From positions 1 to 54,793 of the forward strand of contig CAXBYZ010000004.1 of assembly GCA_963980215.1 (NCBI GenBank): a stretch of DNA of 54,793 nucleotides, written 5' to 3'. Origin of the DNA: an uncultured bacterium (GTDB lineage: Bacteria; Patescibacteriota; Microgenomatia; UBA1400; CG1-02-47-37). Both the position numbers and the translations under genes were made by a program. The notes beneath the pieces were generated by a model. The model worked only from the letters and a program-made list of their open reading frames with translations. It had not been told where the DNA came from and did no database searches. How positions within the stretch are numbered: position 1 is the first letter of the stretch; each line of letters begins with the position of its first letter. Positions 4,610 through 52,150 of the stretch are shown one piece after another.

Positions 4610-5479
4610 ATGTATATAGATACGCATTGCCATCTTAACCTGAAAGATTTTGAGAGTGATTGGAGAGAAGTGGTTGAAAAAGCTAAAAAAGCTGGTGTTT
4701 CAAAGATGATTGTGGTGGGAGCTGACTTAAGTTCTAGCAAGAGAGCTATAGAAATGGCGGAAGAAGTTGAAGGTCTTTATGCTGTGGTTGGATTTCACCC
4801 ACATCACTGTAAGGGTCTTGATGATGTTGATGAGATGATGGCCTCAATAGAAAAACTTACCAAAAACAAGAAAGTGGTGGCTATTGGTGAGTGCGGGTTG
4901 GATTACCATGTGTATCAAAAATCTAAGTATGAAAAAACTCAAGTAACTGAGGATCAAAAAAAATTGCAAAAACGGGTGTTTGGGAGACAAATTCAATTAG
5001 CTAGTAAATTGAATTTACCTCTAGTAATTCACAATCGAGAAGCTCAAAGAGATATTTTGGATACAATTGACCATTTTTGTAAAAGTGATGGCAAGTACCC
5101 AAAAGGAGTGTTTCATTGTATTTCTGGCTCTAAAAAATTTGTGAAACAACTGATAGAGAGGGGTTTTTATGTAGGGGTAGACGGAAATGTTACGTATAGT
5201 AGTGAGGTTCAGGCTTTAGTAGATGAAATACCACTTGAACGATTGTTGCTTGAAACTGATTCTCCTTGGCTAACACCGGAGCCGTTACGTAGCCAACAGA
5301 AGGTTCCGAACCGTCTTTCGCTAAAGCTGCAGACCGCTGATGGTTTGGAACCAAAATTGAGAAATACTCCTATAAGTGTTAGAATCGTGGCCGAGTACTT
5401 ATCTCAAGCAAAAAATGTTAGCTTAGAAAAAATAAGAGCCTCAACGACTAAAAATGCTGAGGCTTTGTTTAATATATGA
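4610..5479 (+). CDS. tatD: TatD family hydrolase carrying a ~20-aa palindromic-element insertion
   Basis: 'IDTHCH', 'GFHPH', 'IGECGLDY', 'LLLETDSP'; extra peptide between 'PEPLR' and 'RNTP'. Confidence 0.93.
   Translation: MYIDTHCHLNLKDFESDWREVVEKAKKAGVSKMIVVGADLSSSKRAIEMAEEVEGLYAVVGFHPHHCKGLDDVDEMMASIEKLTKNKKVVAIGECGLDYHVYQKSKYEKTQVTEDQKKLQKRVFGRQIQLASKLNLPLVIHNREAQRDILDTIDHFCKSDGKYPKGVFHCISGSKKFVKQLIERGFYVGVDGNVTYSSEVQALVDEIPLERLLLETDSPWLTPEPLRSQQKVPNRLSLKLQTADGLEPKLRNTPISVRIVAEYLSQAKNVSLEKIRASTTKNAEALFNI
5300..5352 (+). repeat. family-I doublet, subtype A cargo, inside tatD
   Basis: AAGGTTCCGAAC-cgtctttcgctaaagctgcagaccgctgat-GGTTTGGAACC; homologous to 24054-24105 and 44075-44126. Confidence 0.9.
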
Positions 5480-14725: not shown

Positions 14726-16679
<1,954 letters not shown>

Positions 16680-16722
16680 AAGCTTCCTCCTATAAATTAT
16701 TTAAATATTTAATAAAATTAAG

Positions 16723-16749
16723 CTATCACTCGATGATAGCAAGTGCTAG
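16723..16749. promoter_or_regulatory. degenerate CIRCE (HrcA operator)
   Basis: CTATCACTC-N9-AAGTGCTAG versus consensus TTAGCACTC-N9-GAGTGCTAA, immediately upstream of groES. Confidence 0.7.
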
Positions 16750-41238: not shown

Positions 41239-41283
41239 CATCTAGCTTCAAGAACTAACCTTGTTATTTATATGTTGACAGGG

Positions 41284-41292
41284 TGTGGATAA
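41284..41292 (-). promoter_or_regulatory. DnaA box upstream of dnaA
   Basis: TGTGGATAA (reverse complement of TTATCCACA). Confidence 0.75.
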
Positions 41293-41351
41293 CTATGTAT
41301 GTTTATATTGAGATGGGTTTTCCATTAAGGTTGAGCCCTGCCTACAATATT

Positions 41352-42734
41352 ATGAATATAGAAAGTTTATGGGCAGCGGTGTTAGCTGACCTTGAGTTAA
41401 ATTTATCCCCTGGAAATTTTACGACCTGGATAGCTCCCTTGAAAGCAGTGGAGTTAAAAGGTGGTAGTGACGAGAAGTTTTCTCTTGTGGTGGGGTGCCC
41501 CTCTGTTTTTCATAAAAACCAAGTTTCTGATAGGTATGTTGGAAAAATTCAAACTGTGGTTGAAGAGAGTTTGAAAACTAAGTGCGAAGTTGAACTTTTG
41601 GTGGTTAGTATTGATAAACCGAACAGTGGTGATAACGAGATAAGTGACGATCTTTTTTCTGTTGATACTGATAAGATGGCTTTAGAGGCATACGAGAATG
41701 GTTTTTATAAGGCTGGTTTGAGCCCAGGGCTTACTTTTGATAACTTTGCGGTTTCGAGCAGTAATGAAGTGGCTCATGCGGGAGCGAGGACTGCGGCTAG
41801 TAAGCCTGGGCAAGTTTATCACCTAATTTTTATTTATGGCGGAGTAGGGGTGGGAAAGACTCACTTGATGCAAGCAGTAGGGCATGAAATGTTGAAAAAA
41901 AACCCTGATCAGTCAATTGTTTATTGCACTGGAGAAGAGTTTACAAATGAGATTATTGAAGCGATTCGAAATAGATCGACCCCTGTTTTTAGACAAAAGT
42001 ATAGAAAAGCTAGAGCTCTATTTCTTGACGATGTTCAGTTTATTGGCGGAAAAGAGAAGGTTCAGGAGGAATTTTTTCATACCTTTAATGCTGTGATAAA
42101 AGAAGGGGGACAAGTTATATTGACCAGCGATAGGCTTCCTAGTGAAATTGTTGGACTAGAAGATAGACTAAGAAGCCGGTTTGAAGGGGGGTTAACTGTT
42201 GATGTCCAGGAGCCTGGGTTTGAGCTACGGGCAGCAATATTATTGATAAAGGCTCAACAAATGGGGGTTGAGTTACCGATGAAGGTGGCTCAGATGATCG
42301 CGGCTAATGTGGAGTCGACCAGGAAACTTGAAGGGATTTTGTTAAGGTTGAGTGGAGAGGTTTTGACTAGAAAAGAGCCTTTAACTGAGGAGTTGGCGAT
42401 GGCCCTACTTAATAAAATTGGGGGAGAGGCTGAGGTGTCTAGAAAAACTGTGACTCCGAAACAAGTTTTAAATGAAGTTTCAAAATTTTACCAAGTAAAG
42501 CCGGCTGAACTTAAGGGTAGCAGGAGGTTAAGGGCGGTGGTTTTACCAAGGCAAGTGGTGATGTATTTGCTTAGAAAAGAGTTAAATTTGCCTTTAAAAG
42601 AGGCGGGTAAACTTTTGGGGGGAAGAGATCACACAACTATTATCCATGGCCAAGATAAAGTTTCCAAGATGTTACCGAGTTCGGAAAAGTTAAGAATGGA
42701 TATTTCTGTGATTAGAAAAAGCTTGTATAGGTAG
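41352..42734 (+). CDS. dnaA: chromosomal replication initiator DnaA
   Basis: 'GGVGVGKTHL', 'DDVQF', 'QEEFFHTFN', 'RLRSRF', 'GGRDHTT'; likely start MNIESLW. Confidence 0.97.
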   Translation: MNIESLWAAVLADLELNLSPGNFTTWIAPLKAVELKGGSDEKFSLVVGCPSVFHKNQVSDRYVGKIQTVVEESLKTKCEVELLVVSIDKPNSGDNEISDDLFSVDTDKMALEAYENGFYKAGLSPGLTFDNFAVSSSNEVAHAGARTAASKPGQVYHLIFIYGGVGVGKTHLMQAVGHEMLKKNPDQSIVYCTGEEFTNEIIEAIRNRSTPVFRQKYRKARALFLDDVQFIGGKEKVQEEFFHTFNAVIKEGGQVILTSDRLPSEIVGLEDRLRSRFEGGLTVDVQEPGFELRAAILLIKAQQMGVELPMKVAQMIAANVESTRKLEGILLRLSGEVLTRKEPLTEELAMALLNKIGGEAEVSRKTVTPKQVLNEVSKFYQVKPAELKGSRRLRAVVLPRQVVMYLLRKELNLPLKEAGKLLGGRDHTTIIHGQDKVSKMLPSSEKLRMDISVIRKSLYR

Positions 42735-42942: not shown

Positions 42943-44067
42943 ATGAAAGTTTCGTTATTGCAAGAGAATTTAGCCAAAGGGGTGATGATGGTTGGTAGGA
43001 TGGTAGCAAGTAAGGCGCAGTTGCCGGTTTTATCTAATATTTTGCTGGTAACAGAGTCTGGAAAGTTAAGAGTGTCAGCAACAAATTTAGAAACAGGAAT
43101 GAATGTGTGGATTTCCTCAAAGATAGATGAGCCTGGAAAGATTACGGTGCCTGCTAAGATATTTATGGAGCTGGTGAGCTCTTTACCTAAAGAGACAGTT
43201 ATTCTTGAGACTGAGGGAGAGAAGATTAAGGTGACTTGCGGCAAGTTTAAAGCAACGGTTAATGGGATATTGGCTGAAGAGTTTCCTGAGGTACCAAGTC
43301 TAAAAAGTGGGAGTAAAAAAGGAGTTGAGTCTTTAAAGATAAAAACAAGCGTTTTTGAGAGCTTTATCGATCAAGTGGCTATGGCAGCTGGAGTGGATGA
43401 AGCAAGGCCAATTTTTACTGGAGTGAAGTGGGAGATAGGTAAAAACATTAAGCTAGCAGCTACAGATGGTTACCGTTTGAGCGTAAAGAAGATTAAGGGG
43501 GTGTCATGGTCTGGAGAGAAAAAAGAGATGATAGTGCCGGCTAAGGCATTAATGGAGATAACCAAGATCGTTTCTAAGGTAGATGATGATGAAGTGTTAG
43601 TAGCGGTGACGGATAAAGATAAGCAGTTAATACTGGCTCTTAAAGATGTTGAGGTGGTAACTAGGTTGATTGAGGGAGAGTTCCCTGATTTTGAGAAGAT
43701 AATTCCAACAACAGCAAGTAGTACGGTTGAACTTGATAGAGAGGAGTTGACTCAGGCGGTGAGGGCGGTGGCCATCTTTGCTAGAGATAGTGCCAACATT
43801 GTTAAGTTTAAGGTGACGGATAAATATTTATTGATTTCGGCAAATGCCCCACAAGTGGGAGAGAACGAGGTCGGAGTGAGTGTTGAAAGAAAGGGAGAAG
43901 AGACAGAGATAGCTTTTAATAGTAGATATTTATTAGAAATTTTATCTTTGGTGAAGGCTGAGAGATTAACTTTATCGATGTCTGGGCCGTTAAATCCTGG
44001 TGTTTTTAGGGAAGTTCCTGACCAAGACTTTTTACATATTATTATGCCGGTGAGGGTGCAGGGGTAG
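42943..44067 (+). CDS. dnaN: DNA polymerase III beta clamp
   Basis: 'PVLSNILL', 'ATNLE', 'ATDGYRL', 'LIEGEFP', 'IIMPVR'; AAGGAG RBS. Confidence 0.97.
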   Translation: MKVSLLQENLAKGVMMVGRMVASKAQLPVLSNILLVTESGKLRVSATNLETGMNVWISSKIDEPGKITVPAKIFMELVSSLPKETVILETEGEKIKVTCGKFKATVNGILAEEFPEVPSLKSGSKKGVESLKIKTSVFESFIDQVAMAAGVDEARPIFTGVKWEIGKNIKLAATDGYRLSVKKIKGVSWSGEKKEMIVPAKALMEITKIVSKVDDDEVLVAVTDKDKQLILALKDVEVVTRLIEGEFPDFEKIIPTTASSTVELDREELTQAVRAVAIFARDSANIVKFKVTDKYLLISANAPQVGENEVGVSVERKGEETEIAFNSRYLLEILSLVKAERLTLSMSGPLNPGVFREVPDQDFLHIIMPVRVQG

Positions 44068-46030
44068 AGTCGTTAGGTTCCGAACTGCCTTTCGCTGGCG
44101 CTGCAGGCCGCTGAAAGTTCGGAACCGTGGCCGGTGAGGGTGCAGGGGTAGATGTTGGGTTGGTTGCGGGGGCGGGCTGTTTGTTGGCCAGTACTTCTTT
44201 GGGGTCACTGGTGATAAGAGCGTGTTCGTCTGGTGAGGCAACCACCTTTACAGCTACGTGGTTTTGACCAGCGAAGATAATACCGTGGCCAATGCCGGCC
44301 CCTAAAAGTAAGTGTTTTTCTCCTTCGGAAAGGTAAAAGATTTTAGCTAGCTTGTCGATAGCGGCGGTACTTTGTTTCATTAAAATTTGAATTGAAGAGT
44401 TGGTGACGATGGCTTTGCCGTAGTCTGAGGAGAGAAAGTCTTCGACATCTTGAGTGATGGTGGTTAAACCCAGATAGTATTTCCTGGCCCTTTTGGCCAT
44501 GGAGTAGAGGAAGCTAGCTGAGTCTGGGTATTTCATCATGTACCAAGCCTCGTCGACGACTAGTAGCCTTTTTTTTAGGTCTTTTTTAACTTTTGTCCAG
44601 ATGTGATCTAGAATCATGAACATGGCAATAGGGCGAAGGGCATCTTCTAGTTCCTGAATAGAGAAAACAGTAAAAGTGTTTTGAATGTCAACATTGGTGT
44701 GTTGGTCAAAGATGCCCCGAAAGGAGCCTTTGACAAATTTTTCTAGGCGAGCGGCCAAGTTAAGGGCAGCGGTTTCTTCCATGCCGATTAAAACTTTATA
44801 CAGGTCTTCAAGGAGAGGGGGTTCTTTTTTTTGAGTGGCAGGGTCGGGGGTGATGCCTTTTTGTTTGTAGGTTAAGATAATACTTCTATCTAGAAGAGCT
44901 TCTTCTTGAGGGGAGAGGTCACCCATGATGATTTTAAAGAGGGAGTGAAGAGAGAGAATTTTTTGGGAAAGTTCGTTTTGACCTTCTTCATAAACTTGAG
45001 ATAGGTCAAAGGGGTTTATTTTTGAAGTAGATTTAAAAGAAAATTGAATGTATTGACCGCCCACGGATTCACAGAGTTTTTGATACTCGTTTTCAGGATC
45101 GATAATGATGACTTCAGTGTCAAACATTAATGACCTTAGGGCTTCAAGTTTAACAAGGTATGATTTACCAGCACCAGATTTAGCAAAGACGACGGAGTTA
45201 GCGTTTTCAAGAGAAAATCGGTCGAGAATAATGAGAGAACTGTTGTGCTGATTGATGCCGTACAAAACACCCGTATCTTGAGTTAACTCTGAAGAGGTAA
45301 AGGGAAAAGTGGTGGCTAGAGAGGTGGTGTCCATGTTTCTGGTGATCATTAGTCGATCTTGAGCTAAAGGGAGAGTGGTTTTGAAGGCGTCATTCATTTG
45401 AAGGCTGGCTGGTTTGGCAATGATCATGAGCGAGCCTAGGGCTGATTGAACTTGTTTGGTAATTTTATTTAATTCTTCTAAGGAGTCGGCAGGGATAGTA
45501 ATGTAGAGGCCAAATTGAAAGAATCTCTCAGAGCCTTTAGCTAACTCAATTTGAAGAGACCTGGCATCTTCTAGTTGAACTTTGGTGGAGACGTCGGCAA
45601 TTTTACCCCTTTCAATGTCTGACTGGATCTCGGCCTCCATTTCCCCGACTTTTCTTCTTAGATCACTCATGATGCCACGGCCATCGATGGGGTAGATATA
45701 CATGGAAATATTAAGAGAGTGTCTAAAGTTGATTAAGGGGGAGAGCCAGTTGGCGTTGACAAAGCGAGGGTAGCCAGAGACAAAAAGGGTGCGAAAGTAG
45801 GTGTTGTCAATTTTTTGGTGAGAAAAGTCAATTTCGATGGCTGAGGGGGCAATTATATCCTGGACAGAGGTGACTCCTCGGGAGAACTGATCTTGTTCAA
45901 AGCTGGTTTCTTGTTTGGTTTGTTTCGGGGTGGCCTGAGAAGCCGGGTTTGGGGTTGGCGAGTCACCTGGTTTTTGATCAGCTTTTGGGGTCGATGGAGG
46001 TTTTTTGGGTAGAGAAAGATTAAGTTTCAT
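44042..46030 (-). CDS. VirB4/TraC-like ATPase
   Basis: Walker A 'AKSGAGKS', 'IIDPENEY', 'VVDEAW', 'RARKY', 'ITQ'; likely start MKLNL at 46030. Confidence 0.88.
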   Translation of the reverse strand: MKLNLSLPKKPPSTPKADQKPGDSPTPNPASQATPKQTKQETSFEQDQFSRGVTSVQDIIAPSAIEIDFSHQKIDNTYFRTLFVSGYPRFVNANWLSPLINFRHSLNISMYIYPIDGRGIMSDLRRKVGEMEAEIQSDIERGKIADVSTKVQLEDARSLQIELAKGSERFFQFGLYITIPADSLEELNKITKQVQSALGSLMIIAKPASLQMNDAFKTTLPLAQDRLMITRNMDTTSLATTFPFTSSELTQDTGVLYGINQHNSSLIILDRFSLENANSVVFAKSGAGKSYLVKLEALRSLMFDTEVIIIDPENEYQKLCESVGGQYIQFSFKSTSKINPFDLSQVYEEGQNELSQKILSLHSLFKIIMGDLSPQEEALLDRSIILTYKQKGITPDPATQKKEPPLLEDLYKVLIGMEETAALNLAARLEKFVKGSFRGIFDQHTNVDIQNTFTVFSIQELEDALRPIAMFMILDHIWTKVKKDLKKRLLVVDEAWYMMKYPDSASFLYSMAKRARKYYLGLTTITQDVEDFLSSDYGKAIVTNSSIQILMKQSTAAIDKLAKIFYLSEGEKHLLLGAGIGHGIIFAGQNHVAVKVVASPDEHALITSDPKEVLANKQPAPATNPTSTPAPSPATVPNFQRPAAPAKGSSEPNDSTPAPSPA
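44046..44152 (+). repeat. family-I subtype A doublet (44075-44126) flanked by a perfect 23-bp direct repeat
   Basis: GCCGGTGAGGGTGCAGGGGTAGA at 44046-44068 and 44130-44152. Confidence 0.93.
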
Positions 46031-46721
46031 TTTGAGTAGGAGTATCTTTTGATATGGAAGCATTGACAATGGCAACTTCTGATTCTGAGCGATTGGTGAA
46101 ATCGACATTGCCAGAATTGGGATTGTAGTAGTTGAAAAAGAGTTTAATTAGTTGTGGGGTGGTGAGTTGCTTGGTTTTTAAACCAAGCCGAGAGAGTTGG
46201 GTGATGAGGTGATCTTTTTTTGGAATTAGGCTAGTTTTGGCTTTTTCAATCAGGACACTTTTGTCTAGGGTAAAGTTTTTTTGTTTTTTAAAAGCGGTAG
46301 ATAAAGTAGAAGAGACGCCCATTTCTAAACTAGAAAAAGGAAGAGATAGGTAAAACTTTTTGTCTAAGACCTCATTTTCTTTGACGGTTTGTTGGATAAA
46401 TTGATAGTATTTTTCCAGTTGAGTTTTAAGGAGGGGGTTGGTGATTCTTTGTTTTTGAGCATTTAAAAGACCAAGGTAAGAGTTGATGTTTTTCTTTTGA
46501 GAAGTAATTAAAATTTGAACTGGAAAGTTTAGAGAGTTTAGAAGACCAGCGTAGGCGTAGATGGTGGCGTCTTGTTCTCCCTCTGAAAGTAAAGAAAAGT
46601 TAACTGCTGATGTTTGAAGAATGATACAGGCAGAGCCATCTTTTAAGACAATCATGTCCTCTCGAATGTCTTCGATGTCCATGTGACTTTGAGTGCTGGT
46701 TTTGATTTGAGTGGCAGGCAT
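46020..46721 (-). CDS. conserved protein upstream of VirB4 (TraC/TraE N-terminal-like)
   Basis: 'STQSHMDIEDIRE', 'AVNFSLLSEGEQDA', 'LNFPVQI'; operon context. Confidence 0.65.
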   Translation of the reverse strand: MPATQIKTSTQSHMDIEDIREDMIVLKDGSACIILQTSAVNFSLLSEGEQDATIYAYAGLLNSLNFPVQILITSQKKNINSYLGLLNAQKQRITNPLLKTQLEKYYQFIQQTVKENEVLDKKFYLSLPFSSLEMGVSSTLSTAFKKQKNFTLDKSVLIEKAKTSLIPKKDHLITQLSRLGLKTKQLTTPQLIKLFFNYYNPNSGNVDFTNRSESEVAIVNASISKDTPTQNET

Positions 46722-51405: not shown

Positions 51406-51432
51406 ACATGAAGGTTACGAACCTTCATGTAG
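51406..51432 (+). repeat. RAYT-flanking palindrome (3' of the gene)
   Basis: ACATGAAGGTT-ACG-AACCTTCATGT-AG; identical to 52124-52150. Confidence 0.95.
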
Positions 51433-51435
51433 AAA

Positions 51436-52062
51436 CTATTCTAAGGATAGCTTTGTAAGTTTTTGGGCTATATTTTCTTTGGTGGGGGAGGAAAGAAAAC
51501 TTGAATAATTCTTGGTTAGTTTTAAGACATATTCCGGATACAGCCAGTCTGTGGGATCGGTTTTTTTAAGATATTCTGGTAGAGAAGAATATGAGGTTTT
51601 GTGGAGATGAATGTATTTTGAGAGTTGCAATAACTGTTCACTGGAATCAACAACTACATTTTTGTAGCGACCCTGGAAGATAGCGCCGGAATGTTTGTGA
51701 TGGCTTTGAAAGTACATGGCATAGGTAATCATTAATCTTCGCATAAGATTAGAAATGTTGGTTTTATTGTCTGCAGTGGGCATGGGTTTTAAAATGAAGT
51801 GAAAGTGGTTGGGCATGAGACAGTAGGCAACAATTCTAACGGAGTCAACATGAAGGTTACGAACCTTACTGTAGGGTTTTTGGACGGTGTCTTTGTAGGA
51901 GAAATATTTGGCAGTAGGGAATTTTAGGTAGTAGATGAGAATTTCAATGAAAGTGTCGTAATCTTTTTTGTCTTTAAAGATTTTATGTTTGTAAGCACCA
52001 CGATTAAAGATGTGATAAAAATGTTGAGGTCTGAAATTTCTATTGTAATACTCACTGGGCAT
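51436..52062 (-). mobile_element. HUH/Y1 tyrosine transposase, REP-associated (RAYT, IS200-like Y1_Tnp)
   Basis: 'FYHIFNRG', 'AYCLMPNHFH' (HUH), 'GAIFQGRYK', 'YIH', 'YSS'; palindromes on both sides; no tnpB. Confidence 0.9.
51848..51874 (+). repeat. palindrome copy inside the RAYT coding sequence
   Basis: ACATGAAGGTTACGAACCTTACTGTAG, identical to 52078-52104; encodes YSKVRNLHV. Confidence 0.93.
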
Positions 52063-52077
52063 TAATTTAAGTATAGC

Positions 52078-52150
52078 ACATGAAGGTTACGAACCTTACT
52101 GTAGCGCGAGGGCTTGGGGTGTTACATGAAGGTTACGAACCTTCATGTAG
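52078..52150 (+). repeat. two tandem RAYT-flanking palindromes (5' of the gene)
   Basis: 52078-52104 and 52124-52150; the second supplies the TAA of ORF 52133-52474. Confidence 0.95.

Follow-up and report, generated by a model that had tools for sequence, protein, structure and literature searches.

A palindromic REP doublet between two copies of a 23-bp sequence at the dnaN/VirB4-like gene overlap of a Patescibacteriota genome

This work concerns a stretch of DNA of 54,793 nucleotides (the window, to whose positions coordinates refer unless another contig or locus is named), which is contig 4 of a metagenome-assembled genome of 820,410 bases in 45 contigs from an uncultured member of the Patescibacteriota. 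In this window dnaN, the gene for the DNA polymerase III beta clamp, converges with a gene for a VirB4-like ATPase, and a palindromic element of the repetitive extragenic palindromic (REP) kind lies at their junction, enclosed by two identical copies of a 23-bp sequence. Judged by comparison with related genomes, this site is an insertion together with a duplication of the overlap between the two genes, relative to an ancestral site with a single copy. The 23-bp duplication is not the usual footprint of the REP family to which the element belongs. A tentative explanation, to which we give a probability of roughly 45%, is that a REP inserted into the dnaN/ATPase overlap with a staggered-break duplication, and that the result was retained by selection on the end of the clamp gene.

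The duplicated stretch and the genes that share it

The 23-mer GCCGGTGAGGGTGCAGGGGTAGA has two occurrences in the window, at positions 44046-44068 and 44130-44152, and no other at up to three mismatches. No match arose in any of 100 shuffled sequences, and a search across the whole 820-kb genome at up to four mismatches returned no third copy. The repeat is exactly 23 bp long, the bases that border its two copies being unlike on both sides (T versus G before, G versus T after), and no microhomology was found at the edges of the repeat unit or outside the repeat. A preliminary description of this DNA had placed the two copies around the doublet and had read a repeated STPAPSPA from the minus strand in the VirB4-like tail, with a stop in dnaN and a 26-bp overlap; the repeat proved to be exact and present only twice, and translation bore out the reading of the tail.

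The dnaN gene and the VirB4-like open reading frame overlap tail to tail by 26 bp, and the minus-strand ATPase product terminates with ...STPAPSPA-TVPNFQRPAAPAKGSSEPND-STPAPSPA*. One relative of this ATPase is labelled a VirB4-like conjugal transfer ATPase by its source. The 23-mer and the enclosed 61 bp amount to 84 extra bp, or 28 codons, through which the ATPase frame stays open. The 23-mer reaches from the final sense codon of the ATPase to one base beyond the stop codon of dnaN, and the length of the duplication is within 1 nt of the minimum at which dnaN keeps its stop and the ATPase keeps every sense codon.

Empty and filled sites in related genomes

Relatives were sought in 41 related genomes; a search of the whole family covered 14 genomes and brought no additional member of the genus. 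Scans with DnaN for closer relatives of the site returned only distant proteins, encoded at five loci of genome contigs (29-52% identity) and six loci of metagenome contigs (29-36%).

Empty sites with a single 23-mer are present in one genome of the same genus (G001) and in two genomes of other genera of the family (G011 and G005). In each of them dnaN and the VirB4-like gene overlap tail to tail, the single 23-mer aligns with an uninterrupted site whose flanks are continuous on both sides, and the ATPase ends inside dnaN with TPAPSPA* or GPAPA*. The matches to the dnaN side and to the ATPase side overlap by 22 bases in G001, where one 23-mer (GCCGGTGAGGGTGCGGGGGTAGT) is followed directly by the ATPase tail and the protein ends with TTPAPSPA* inside dnaN. 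Since one 23-mer and an overlap are shared by these three relatives, the overlap is best regarded as ancestral, and the state seen in the window as an insertion plus a duplication. The single-copy allele, which the preliminary description had pointed to as a check on its interpretation, was thus found among relatives.

Another genome of the same genus, G002, has a filled site. It is spread over two contigs with a 141-base overlap, and reads, in order, GCCGGTGAGGGTGCAGGGATAAT, ATAGAA, an 86-bp doublet, AGTA and GTCGGTGAGGGTACAGGGGTTTG. The doublet of G002 is of a type with two inner stems (three stems in all), unlike that of the window, which belongs to a type here called A (see below). Copy 2 of G002 matches its copy 1 at 15 of 16 positions in the best stretch, a score reached by none of 1000 shuffles, and the left edge of the repeat falls on the same base in G002 and in the window. 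The ATPase of G002 stops five codons into the element (..TTGSEL*), so that the two genes no longer overlap, and an independently deposited protein ends likewise. A fourth species is represented by a protein, P0010, whose tail reads ..TSTPVSSP SSEPKSF IPAPSPA* and whose last 15 residues align without gaps to ..SSEPND STPAPSPA* of the window; as read from this protein, the site probably consists of copy 2, a single core and copy 1.

In G003, about 270 bp of unrelated sequence separate dnaN from the ATPase gene (locus L004). A candidate for a diverged second copy of the 23-mer was rejected here, its best alignment being equalled by 341 of 1000 shuffles. No significant relic of the repeat was detected in G009 and G007, whose dnaN and ATPase genes have other genes between them, and an allele with the duplication in bare tandem, free of any element, was found in none of the genomes and contigs examined. 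As to the ATPase relatives themselves, precomputed Pfam hits assign intein and LAGLIDADG domains to P0052 and P0098. The tails of P0009 and P0015 (and the N-terminus of the latter) contain stretches like GLANAKPTTK..HPANAG, which resemble translated palindromic repeats of another family.

The REP doublet and its family

The 61 bp between the two 23-mers hold a REP doublet, a hairpin with GGTTCCGAAC arms at 44076-44126. Its 11-bp arms pair over a 29-nt interior (RNA fold -26.2 kcal/mol, z -3.0), and the DNA fold gives the same stem. Four exact doublets of this plan are present in the window, together with 22 matches to the core at up to one mismatch, versus 0.58 expected. The genome has 43 hairpins with GGTTCCGAAC / GTTCGGAACC arms, counted at up to one mismatch per arm and with some nested in one another, as well as 81 exact cores. 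The interiors of these hairpins are short (34 bp), of type A as at dnaN (50 bp), or longer with two inner stems (55-67 bp).

Across 20 aligned type-A copies, drawn from four species, compensatory changes preserve both the outer stem and, within it, one of 4 bp, the pairs of the inner stem being GTCT/AGAC, GCCT/AGGC and ACCT/AGGT. The type-A interior (44087-44115 in the window, and the 19 other copies) also has a conserved unpaired (A/G)CCGCTGA on its 3′ side, between the inner and the outer stem, which could be a protein recognition site. The family carries a flank of its own, as (C)TCGTT or CCGTT abuts GGTTC[CG]GAAC in six other copies of the genome, and the closest type-A copy elsewhere in the genome is 90% identical to that at dnaN. 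A search of the window with Rfam at gathering thresholds returned tRNA only, so that the hairpins belong to no curated RNA family. A role of the hairpin as a classical terminator is not supported by the sequence, the scan having found neither a terminator-like site nor a T-run at the element.

Flanking repeats at other copies

A flanking direct repeat above chance was found at only one of the 43 hairpins of the genome, the copy at dnaN, which has a score of 23. The corresponding null, from 2000 random places, averages 5.9 and peaks at 11, with its 99th percentile at 9; the runner-up among the hairpins scores 11 and is itself another palindromic motif. No other copy of the element in the genome adjoins a sequence similar to the 23-mer (up to four mismatches). 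The 44 local direct repeats of at least 14 bp at a spacing of 22-300 bp comprise REP copies and coding tandem repeats, and apart from the repeat at dnaN no unique repeat of non-REP sequence surrounds a hairpin. On contig 11 of the genome (15497-15639), two direct repeats, one of 30 bp and one of 33 bp, interleave at a period of 75 bp and make up a tandem repeat.

Among 25 hairpins in the loci of relatives, scores above chance were due solely to REP cores and to the dnaN site of G002. A 13-bp imperfect repeat around a type-A copy of G003 (score 10) was set aside, since it is within chance for about 70 tests. Clean comparisons of sites that are filled in G002 and empty in this genome showed no duplication in two of two cases. 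One of these is a type-A doublet inside a conserved GTPase gene (..NYPFATIEPNVGVVEV..; G002, L062:169-218), which is uninterrupted here (contig 15, near 16683-16743).

The absence of a target duplication thus holds for 42 of the 43 copies and for both filled/empty pairs, but not for the copy at dnaN. The accessible text of PMC2817692 states that IS200/IS605-type enzymes generate no larger target duplications, and the rarity of flanking repeats at the REP copies fits this statement. The preliminary description, which had stated that Y1 transposition is duplication-free and had seen no comparable repeats at other copies, was right on both counts as far as this survey reaches.

Y1 transposase genes and their hairpins

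Sixteen matches to Y1_Tnp (IS200-like Y1 transposase) above the Pfam cut-off are present in the genome, in open frames of 213-282 residues. REP-associated tyrosine transposases (RAYTs) are usually single-copy. In a simple hairpin scan, 8 of the 16 genes were bracketed on both sides by the same hairpin of 19-23 bp. Each of the bracketed genes has its own hairpin variant, and four of the eight variants follow the plan NNNNNN-GGTT-NNN-AACC-NNNNNN. For instance, ATTTAAGGTTCCGAACCTTAAAT hairpins bracket a Y1 gene on contig 14 (5503-6159). Several Y1 genes of the genome hold an additional hairpin copy within their reading frame. The Y1 protein encoded in the window (Table 1) contains ..MPNHFHFIL.., which we tentatively assign to the HUH motif, and ..GRYKN.., which presumably includes the catalytic tyrosine.

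The bracketing of Y1 genes by their own GGTT-NNN-AACC hairpins indicates that the arms of the element at dnaN are two inverted copies of a palindromic REP core. Many palindromic copies are dispersed over the genome, an inverted REP pair forms one long hairpin, and a Y1 gene is accompanied by cognate REPs. By these features of its sequence, the element at dnaN is of the kind known as REP/REPIN-RAYT (REPINs being REP doublets forming hairpins) in everything that could be tested, with the flanking duplication as the exception.

Table 1. Features of the window discussed in the text.
Feature	Position	Strand	Basis
dnaN (DNA polymerase III beta clamp), ending ...IIMPVRVQG*	42943..44067	+	Open reading frame and translation; three Pfam beta-clamp domains, E 1e-24 to 1e-30
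dnaA, upstream of dnaN	41283-42734		Pfam
VirB4/TraG-type P-loop ATPase; tail runs through copy 2, hairpin and copy 1; stop within dnaN	44042..46108	-	Translation; Pfam P-loop_TraG E 5e-28, AAA_10, DUF87
Repeat copy 1 (T1): final dnaN codons and stop; opposite strand encodes terminal STPAPSPA of ATPase	44046..44068	.	Sequence, translation
GTCGTTA, conserved flank of the element itself	44069..44075	.	Other copies have CTCGTT directly before the core
REP doublet, type A; arms GGTTCCGAACT (44076-44086) and AGTTCGGAACC (44116-44126), 29-bp conserved interior	44076..44126	.	Pattern search, fold, alignment
GTG, 3-bp spacer from hairpin to copy 2	44127..44129	.	Sequence
Repeat copy 2 (T2): now encodes only the internal STPAPSPA of the ATPase tail	44130..44152	.	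Sequence, translation
Y1 (RAYT-like) transposase gene	51436..52062	-	Pfam Y1_Tnp E 1.7e-8, above cut-off
CATGAAGGTTACGAACCTTCATG hairpins bracketing the Y1 gene; they belong to a related REP family whose cores also follow the GGTT-NNN-AACC plan	51407-51429 and 52125-52147		Hairpin scan

Note also that the GC skew is positive in every segment of the window except 15001-16000, and that the cumulative skew climbs throughout, with no turn near dnaA and dnaN; either the replication origin is not beside dnaA, or the skew has another cause.

Turnover of element interiors at fixed sites

Loci of G002, G003 and G001 were compared with this genome for the contents of orthologous sites. Four such sites are filled in both of the species compared and differ in what they hold (C2:3439, C18 near 11660, C8 near 7431 and C1:50657): type A versus two inner stems, a doublet versus a single core, a doublet versus a doublet with one decayed arm, and type A versus a doublet of another REP family. 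At dnaN, the orientation of the interior relative to the CTCGTT flank is opposite to that of all three other type-A copies that bear this flank. These comparisons indicate that REP cores stay in place while their interiors are exchanged, inverted or deleted. For Pseudomonas, the accessible text of PMC3116915 describes how a doublet that loses the sequence between its two REPs becomes a singlet. Given such turnover at fixed cores, the differing interiors of the window and G002 are no argument against a common origin of the two inserts. An orthologous type-A copy shared with another genus (window 5302-5352, G003 L050:1502-1552) is identical at 48 of 51 positions, with flanks at 73-80%; it is conserved beyond its surroundings and lies just before the apparent start of a tRNA gene.

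Age and history of the insertion

The filled allele was recovered with no differences in contigs of runs from three further independent marine studies, dated 2012-2020. These contigs cover positions 44005-44500 (X5), 44010-44162 (X7) and 43700-44141 (X6), and both junctions are thus crossed by assembled contigs, as distinct from raw reads, of independent runs. No contig from four runs joins across an empty site; rare variants are dropped from contigs, so that this negative result does not address excision at low frequency. The element had been called a recent insertion and a potential site of precise excision in the preliminary description. That an insertion took place is upheld by the empty sites of G001, G011 and G005, whereas its recency is not supported, given the filled sites of three studies and the homologous duplication in G002. 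Precise excision is plausible and would explain the empty site of G001, which two independent gains explain equally well.

The branching order of the relatives bears on this choice. In seven of seven neighboring genes, similarity is highest between G001 and G002, and the ATPase tree has the form ((this genome, P0010), (G002, G001)), with supports of 93/90 and 98/93. Against this grouping, this genome groups with G002 in the DnaN tree (92/92). Close to the junction (44160-44910), the proportion of sites that this genome has in common with G002 is raised, at 67 versus 62, in comparison with 332 versus 464 elsewhere, and so leans weakly the way of the DnaN tree. That recombination moved the filled allele from one lineage to another is no more than suggested by this difference, the tests being weak and the region picked post hoc (p 0.09 by chi-square, 0.02 by the binomial test). 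Over positions 44300-44800, derived sites common to this genome and G002 are relatively more numerous than across the rest of the dnaA-dnaN-ATPase region, perhaps a weak trace of such recombination.

As G001 is empty though closest to the filled G002, either the site was filled once, at the base of the genus, and emptied again by a precise loss in G001, or it was filled twice; we hold the odds between these to be near even. A single gain is favored by the shared left edge and by the fact that turnover of interiors is common. Two gains, or a later conversion, are favored by the copies themselves, which are identical here at 23 of 23 positions and differ at five or six positions in G002.

How the insertion and the duplication may have arisen

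The explanation that we tentatively prefer begins with an ancestor in which dnaN and the VirB4-like gene overlapped by 26 bp, one stretch of DNA encoding both C-termini. A REP/RAYT-type palindromic repeat, either as a single GGTTCCGAACC core or already as a doublet, would have inserted exactly at this overlap. Staggered breaks in the two strands, offset by about 23 nt, the filling of the overhangs and the joining of the element between them would have accompanied the insertion with a 23-bp duplication of nearly the whole shared coding stretch. By type, the event would be an insertion with long target duplication, and not the usual duplication-free route of the family. An insertion that left the overlap uncopied would have truncated the C-terminus of the essential clamp and been lost, which would be the reason why a duplication is visible at the dnaN site. 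Afterwards, the core may have acted as a fixed landing site, with turnover of the sequence between the arms: type A here, the three-stem type in G002 and, in a third species, what is probably a single core. The ATPase of this species reads the 84 extra bases in frame and has 28 residues more in a disordered tail, and the two 23-mers could recombine and restore the overlapped state.

Several points weigh against this proposal. A staggered break cannot be told from other routes by sequence alone, and the order of events is read from filled and empty alleles, with no duplication-only allele among them. The need for the last eight codons of the ATPase is doubtful, given that the tails of relatives vary freely and that the G002 protein ends inside the element; with a tail that looks dispensable, selection would account for the right edge of the repeat, set by the dnaN stop, better than for the left one. 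The spacers and interiors of the inserts in the window and in G002 are without clear similarity. In addition, a single old event predicts, by the measure of G002, about five differences between the copies, and would need gene conversion here, or else a separate, younger event.

An alternative that we consider rather unlikely, although it deserves the most attention among those that follow, is that the duplication came first. Slippage would have duplicated the last eight codons of the ATPase in tandem (23-24 bp), and REPs would then have colonized the zero-length junction in their duplication-free manner, independently or repeatedly across lineages, so that the repeat would not be the footprint of the element. 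This order of events is consistent with duplication-free insertion elsewhere in the family, with the different elements and spacers that the window and G002 hold at the same junction, with other intergenic sites at which both species likewise hold differing REP types or other REP families, and with the internal proline/serine-rich expansions seen in the tails of this protein family. The 84 bp, taken as 24 plus 60, would also keep the ATPase frame at each step, given one change at base 44129. Yet the bare tandem duplication that it calls for was seen in no genome or contig, the edges of the repeat have no microhomology that would favor slippage, and the similar lengths of repeat and overlap would be a coincidence. 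Less likely than this order of events, and in our view improbable, is an aberrant Y1 or replication-fork reaction. In one version, a single-stranded DNA circle containing the element and 23 nt of flank would have been excised, reopened at the normal end of the element and reinserted after the 23-mer. In the other, a fork that had stalled would have switched template, copied a REP of another locus and taken up synthesis again 23 nt upstream. The 16 Y1 genes of the genome could supply the enzyme for such a reaction, and the left junction GTCGTTA, being the family's own flank, indicates that a complete unit moved. According to the accessible text of PMC8266576, IS200/IS605-type enzymes act on single-stranded DNA via circular intermediates, and the spread of REPs by such an enzyme is still unexplained. 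However, the genome has no donor with matching flanks (both junction strings were searched at up to two mismatches and gave remote matches only), there is no microhomology outside the repeat, and several unlikely steps would be required.

The remaining alternatives concern the age and the reality of the insertion. A recent, possibly still polymorphic insertion confined to this lineage would account for the identity of the two copies and for a type-A relative as close as 90% in the same genome. We think it improbable as well, since the filled allele is unchanged in the three further studies, in which no contig with an empty site was met, and since the duplication of G002 is homologous; moreover, the match of the P0010 tail to the junction between arm and copy 1 in the window suggests, at the level of the protein, that the insertion predates the split of the two species. 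That metagenome assemblies are broken by repeats, as the 45 contigs of this one and the position of the G002 site at two contig ends may recall, would be the ground for suspecting an assembly artefact; the independent contigs X5 and X7, which span the site without difference, and the open, in-frame ATPase gene make its probability negligible.

Returning to insertion with a staggered-break duplication, the site may be an instance of something broader, though we regard this extension as unlikely. The splitting of tail-to-tail overlaps by a small insert with a just-sufficient duplication would then be a general and reversible process, in which recombination between the copies removes the insert precisely, compact genomes toggle between overlapped and separated convergent genes, and REP/RAYT elements are frequent passengers or agents. 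The same-site duplication of two species and the empty close relative would be its instances. How REPs reach new sites is unexplained, and a copy with an empty counterpart and a clear flanking duplication constitutes a rare natural record of an arrival. The site also suggests a way for a very compact genome to accommodate an insertion where both strands are coding, the copied shared codons keeping an essential replication protein whole. Precise deletion is to be expected of a strong hairpin that lies between two 23-bp repeats, and the locus offers a simple system in which gain and loss could be measured.

Comparison with known systems

The resemblance to REP/REPIN-RAYT systems is extensive. 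As described in the accessible text of PMC3116915, PMC2817692 and PMC8266576, these systems have in common with the present one many short palindromic copies, inverted-core doublets that form long hairpins and Y1 genes bracketed by their own hairpins; ordinary copies without target duplication, and singlets related to doublets through loss of the inter-core sequence, are likewise shared. The arrangement is known from Proteobacteria (PMC3116915, PMC2817692, as far as their available text goes). We found no report of REP/RAYT systems in Patescibacteria in the literature; among the matches listed, those judged by title were unrelated microbiome studies. The present system differs in having 16 Y1 genes per 820 kb instead of the usual one or a few, several core variants and interior types side by side, copies in frame within genes and, at dnaN, a 23-bp flanking duplication that we did not find described for REPINs in the available portions of the sources. 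Other classes of mobile DNA fit less well. A DDE-type transposon or a miniature inverted-repeat transposable element with regular duplication would leave a duplication of fixed length at every copy, and here it is present at 1 of 43. Nor does site-specific integration with an att core on the element agree with a gene-free insert of 61 bp from a family whose other copies lack the 23-mer, although no search of the genome for integrases was made.

Insertion with long target duplication was reportedly described by Nobusato et al. in 2000, a paper mentioned within that of Furuta et al. The latter authors (Furuta et al., 2010; PMC2853133) describe, in the text available to us, long and variable duplications without a mobility gene. 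As in their cases, a unique host sequence borders the insert on both sides here but is single in relatives whose site is empty; the insert encodes neither an integrase nor a transposase, and the repeats may extend over the 3′ end of a gene. The repeat aligns a single time to the uninterrupted site of related genomes and is unique in this genome, but it is 23 bp long, below the more than 30 bp that the authors' criterion sets for the known cases, which are gene cassettes and not, as here, a mobile repeat of 61 bp. The length is within the range of IS1630, an IS30-type element of Mycoplasma fermentans whose target duplications are 19-26 bp (as cited in the available part of PMC2853133). IS1630, however, is an insertion sequence that moves autonomously by its own DDE-type transposase and duplicates its target at every insertion, unlike the single copy of 43 that does so here. 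Rickettsia palindromic elements are translated in frame inside genes, and in this they are like the present element, a palindromic repeat that is read through and adds residues to a tolerant region; we know of no link between them and the duplication of a gene overlap. Seen against these systems, the dnaN site is a rare footprint of a known kind of event, and not a new system, element or kind of enzyme.

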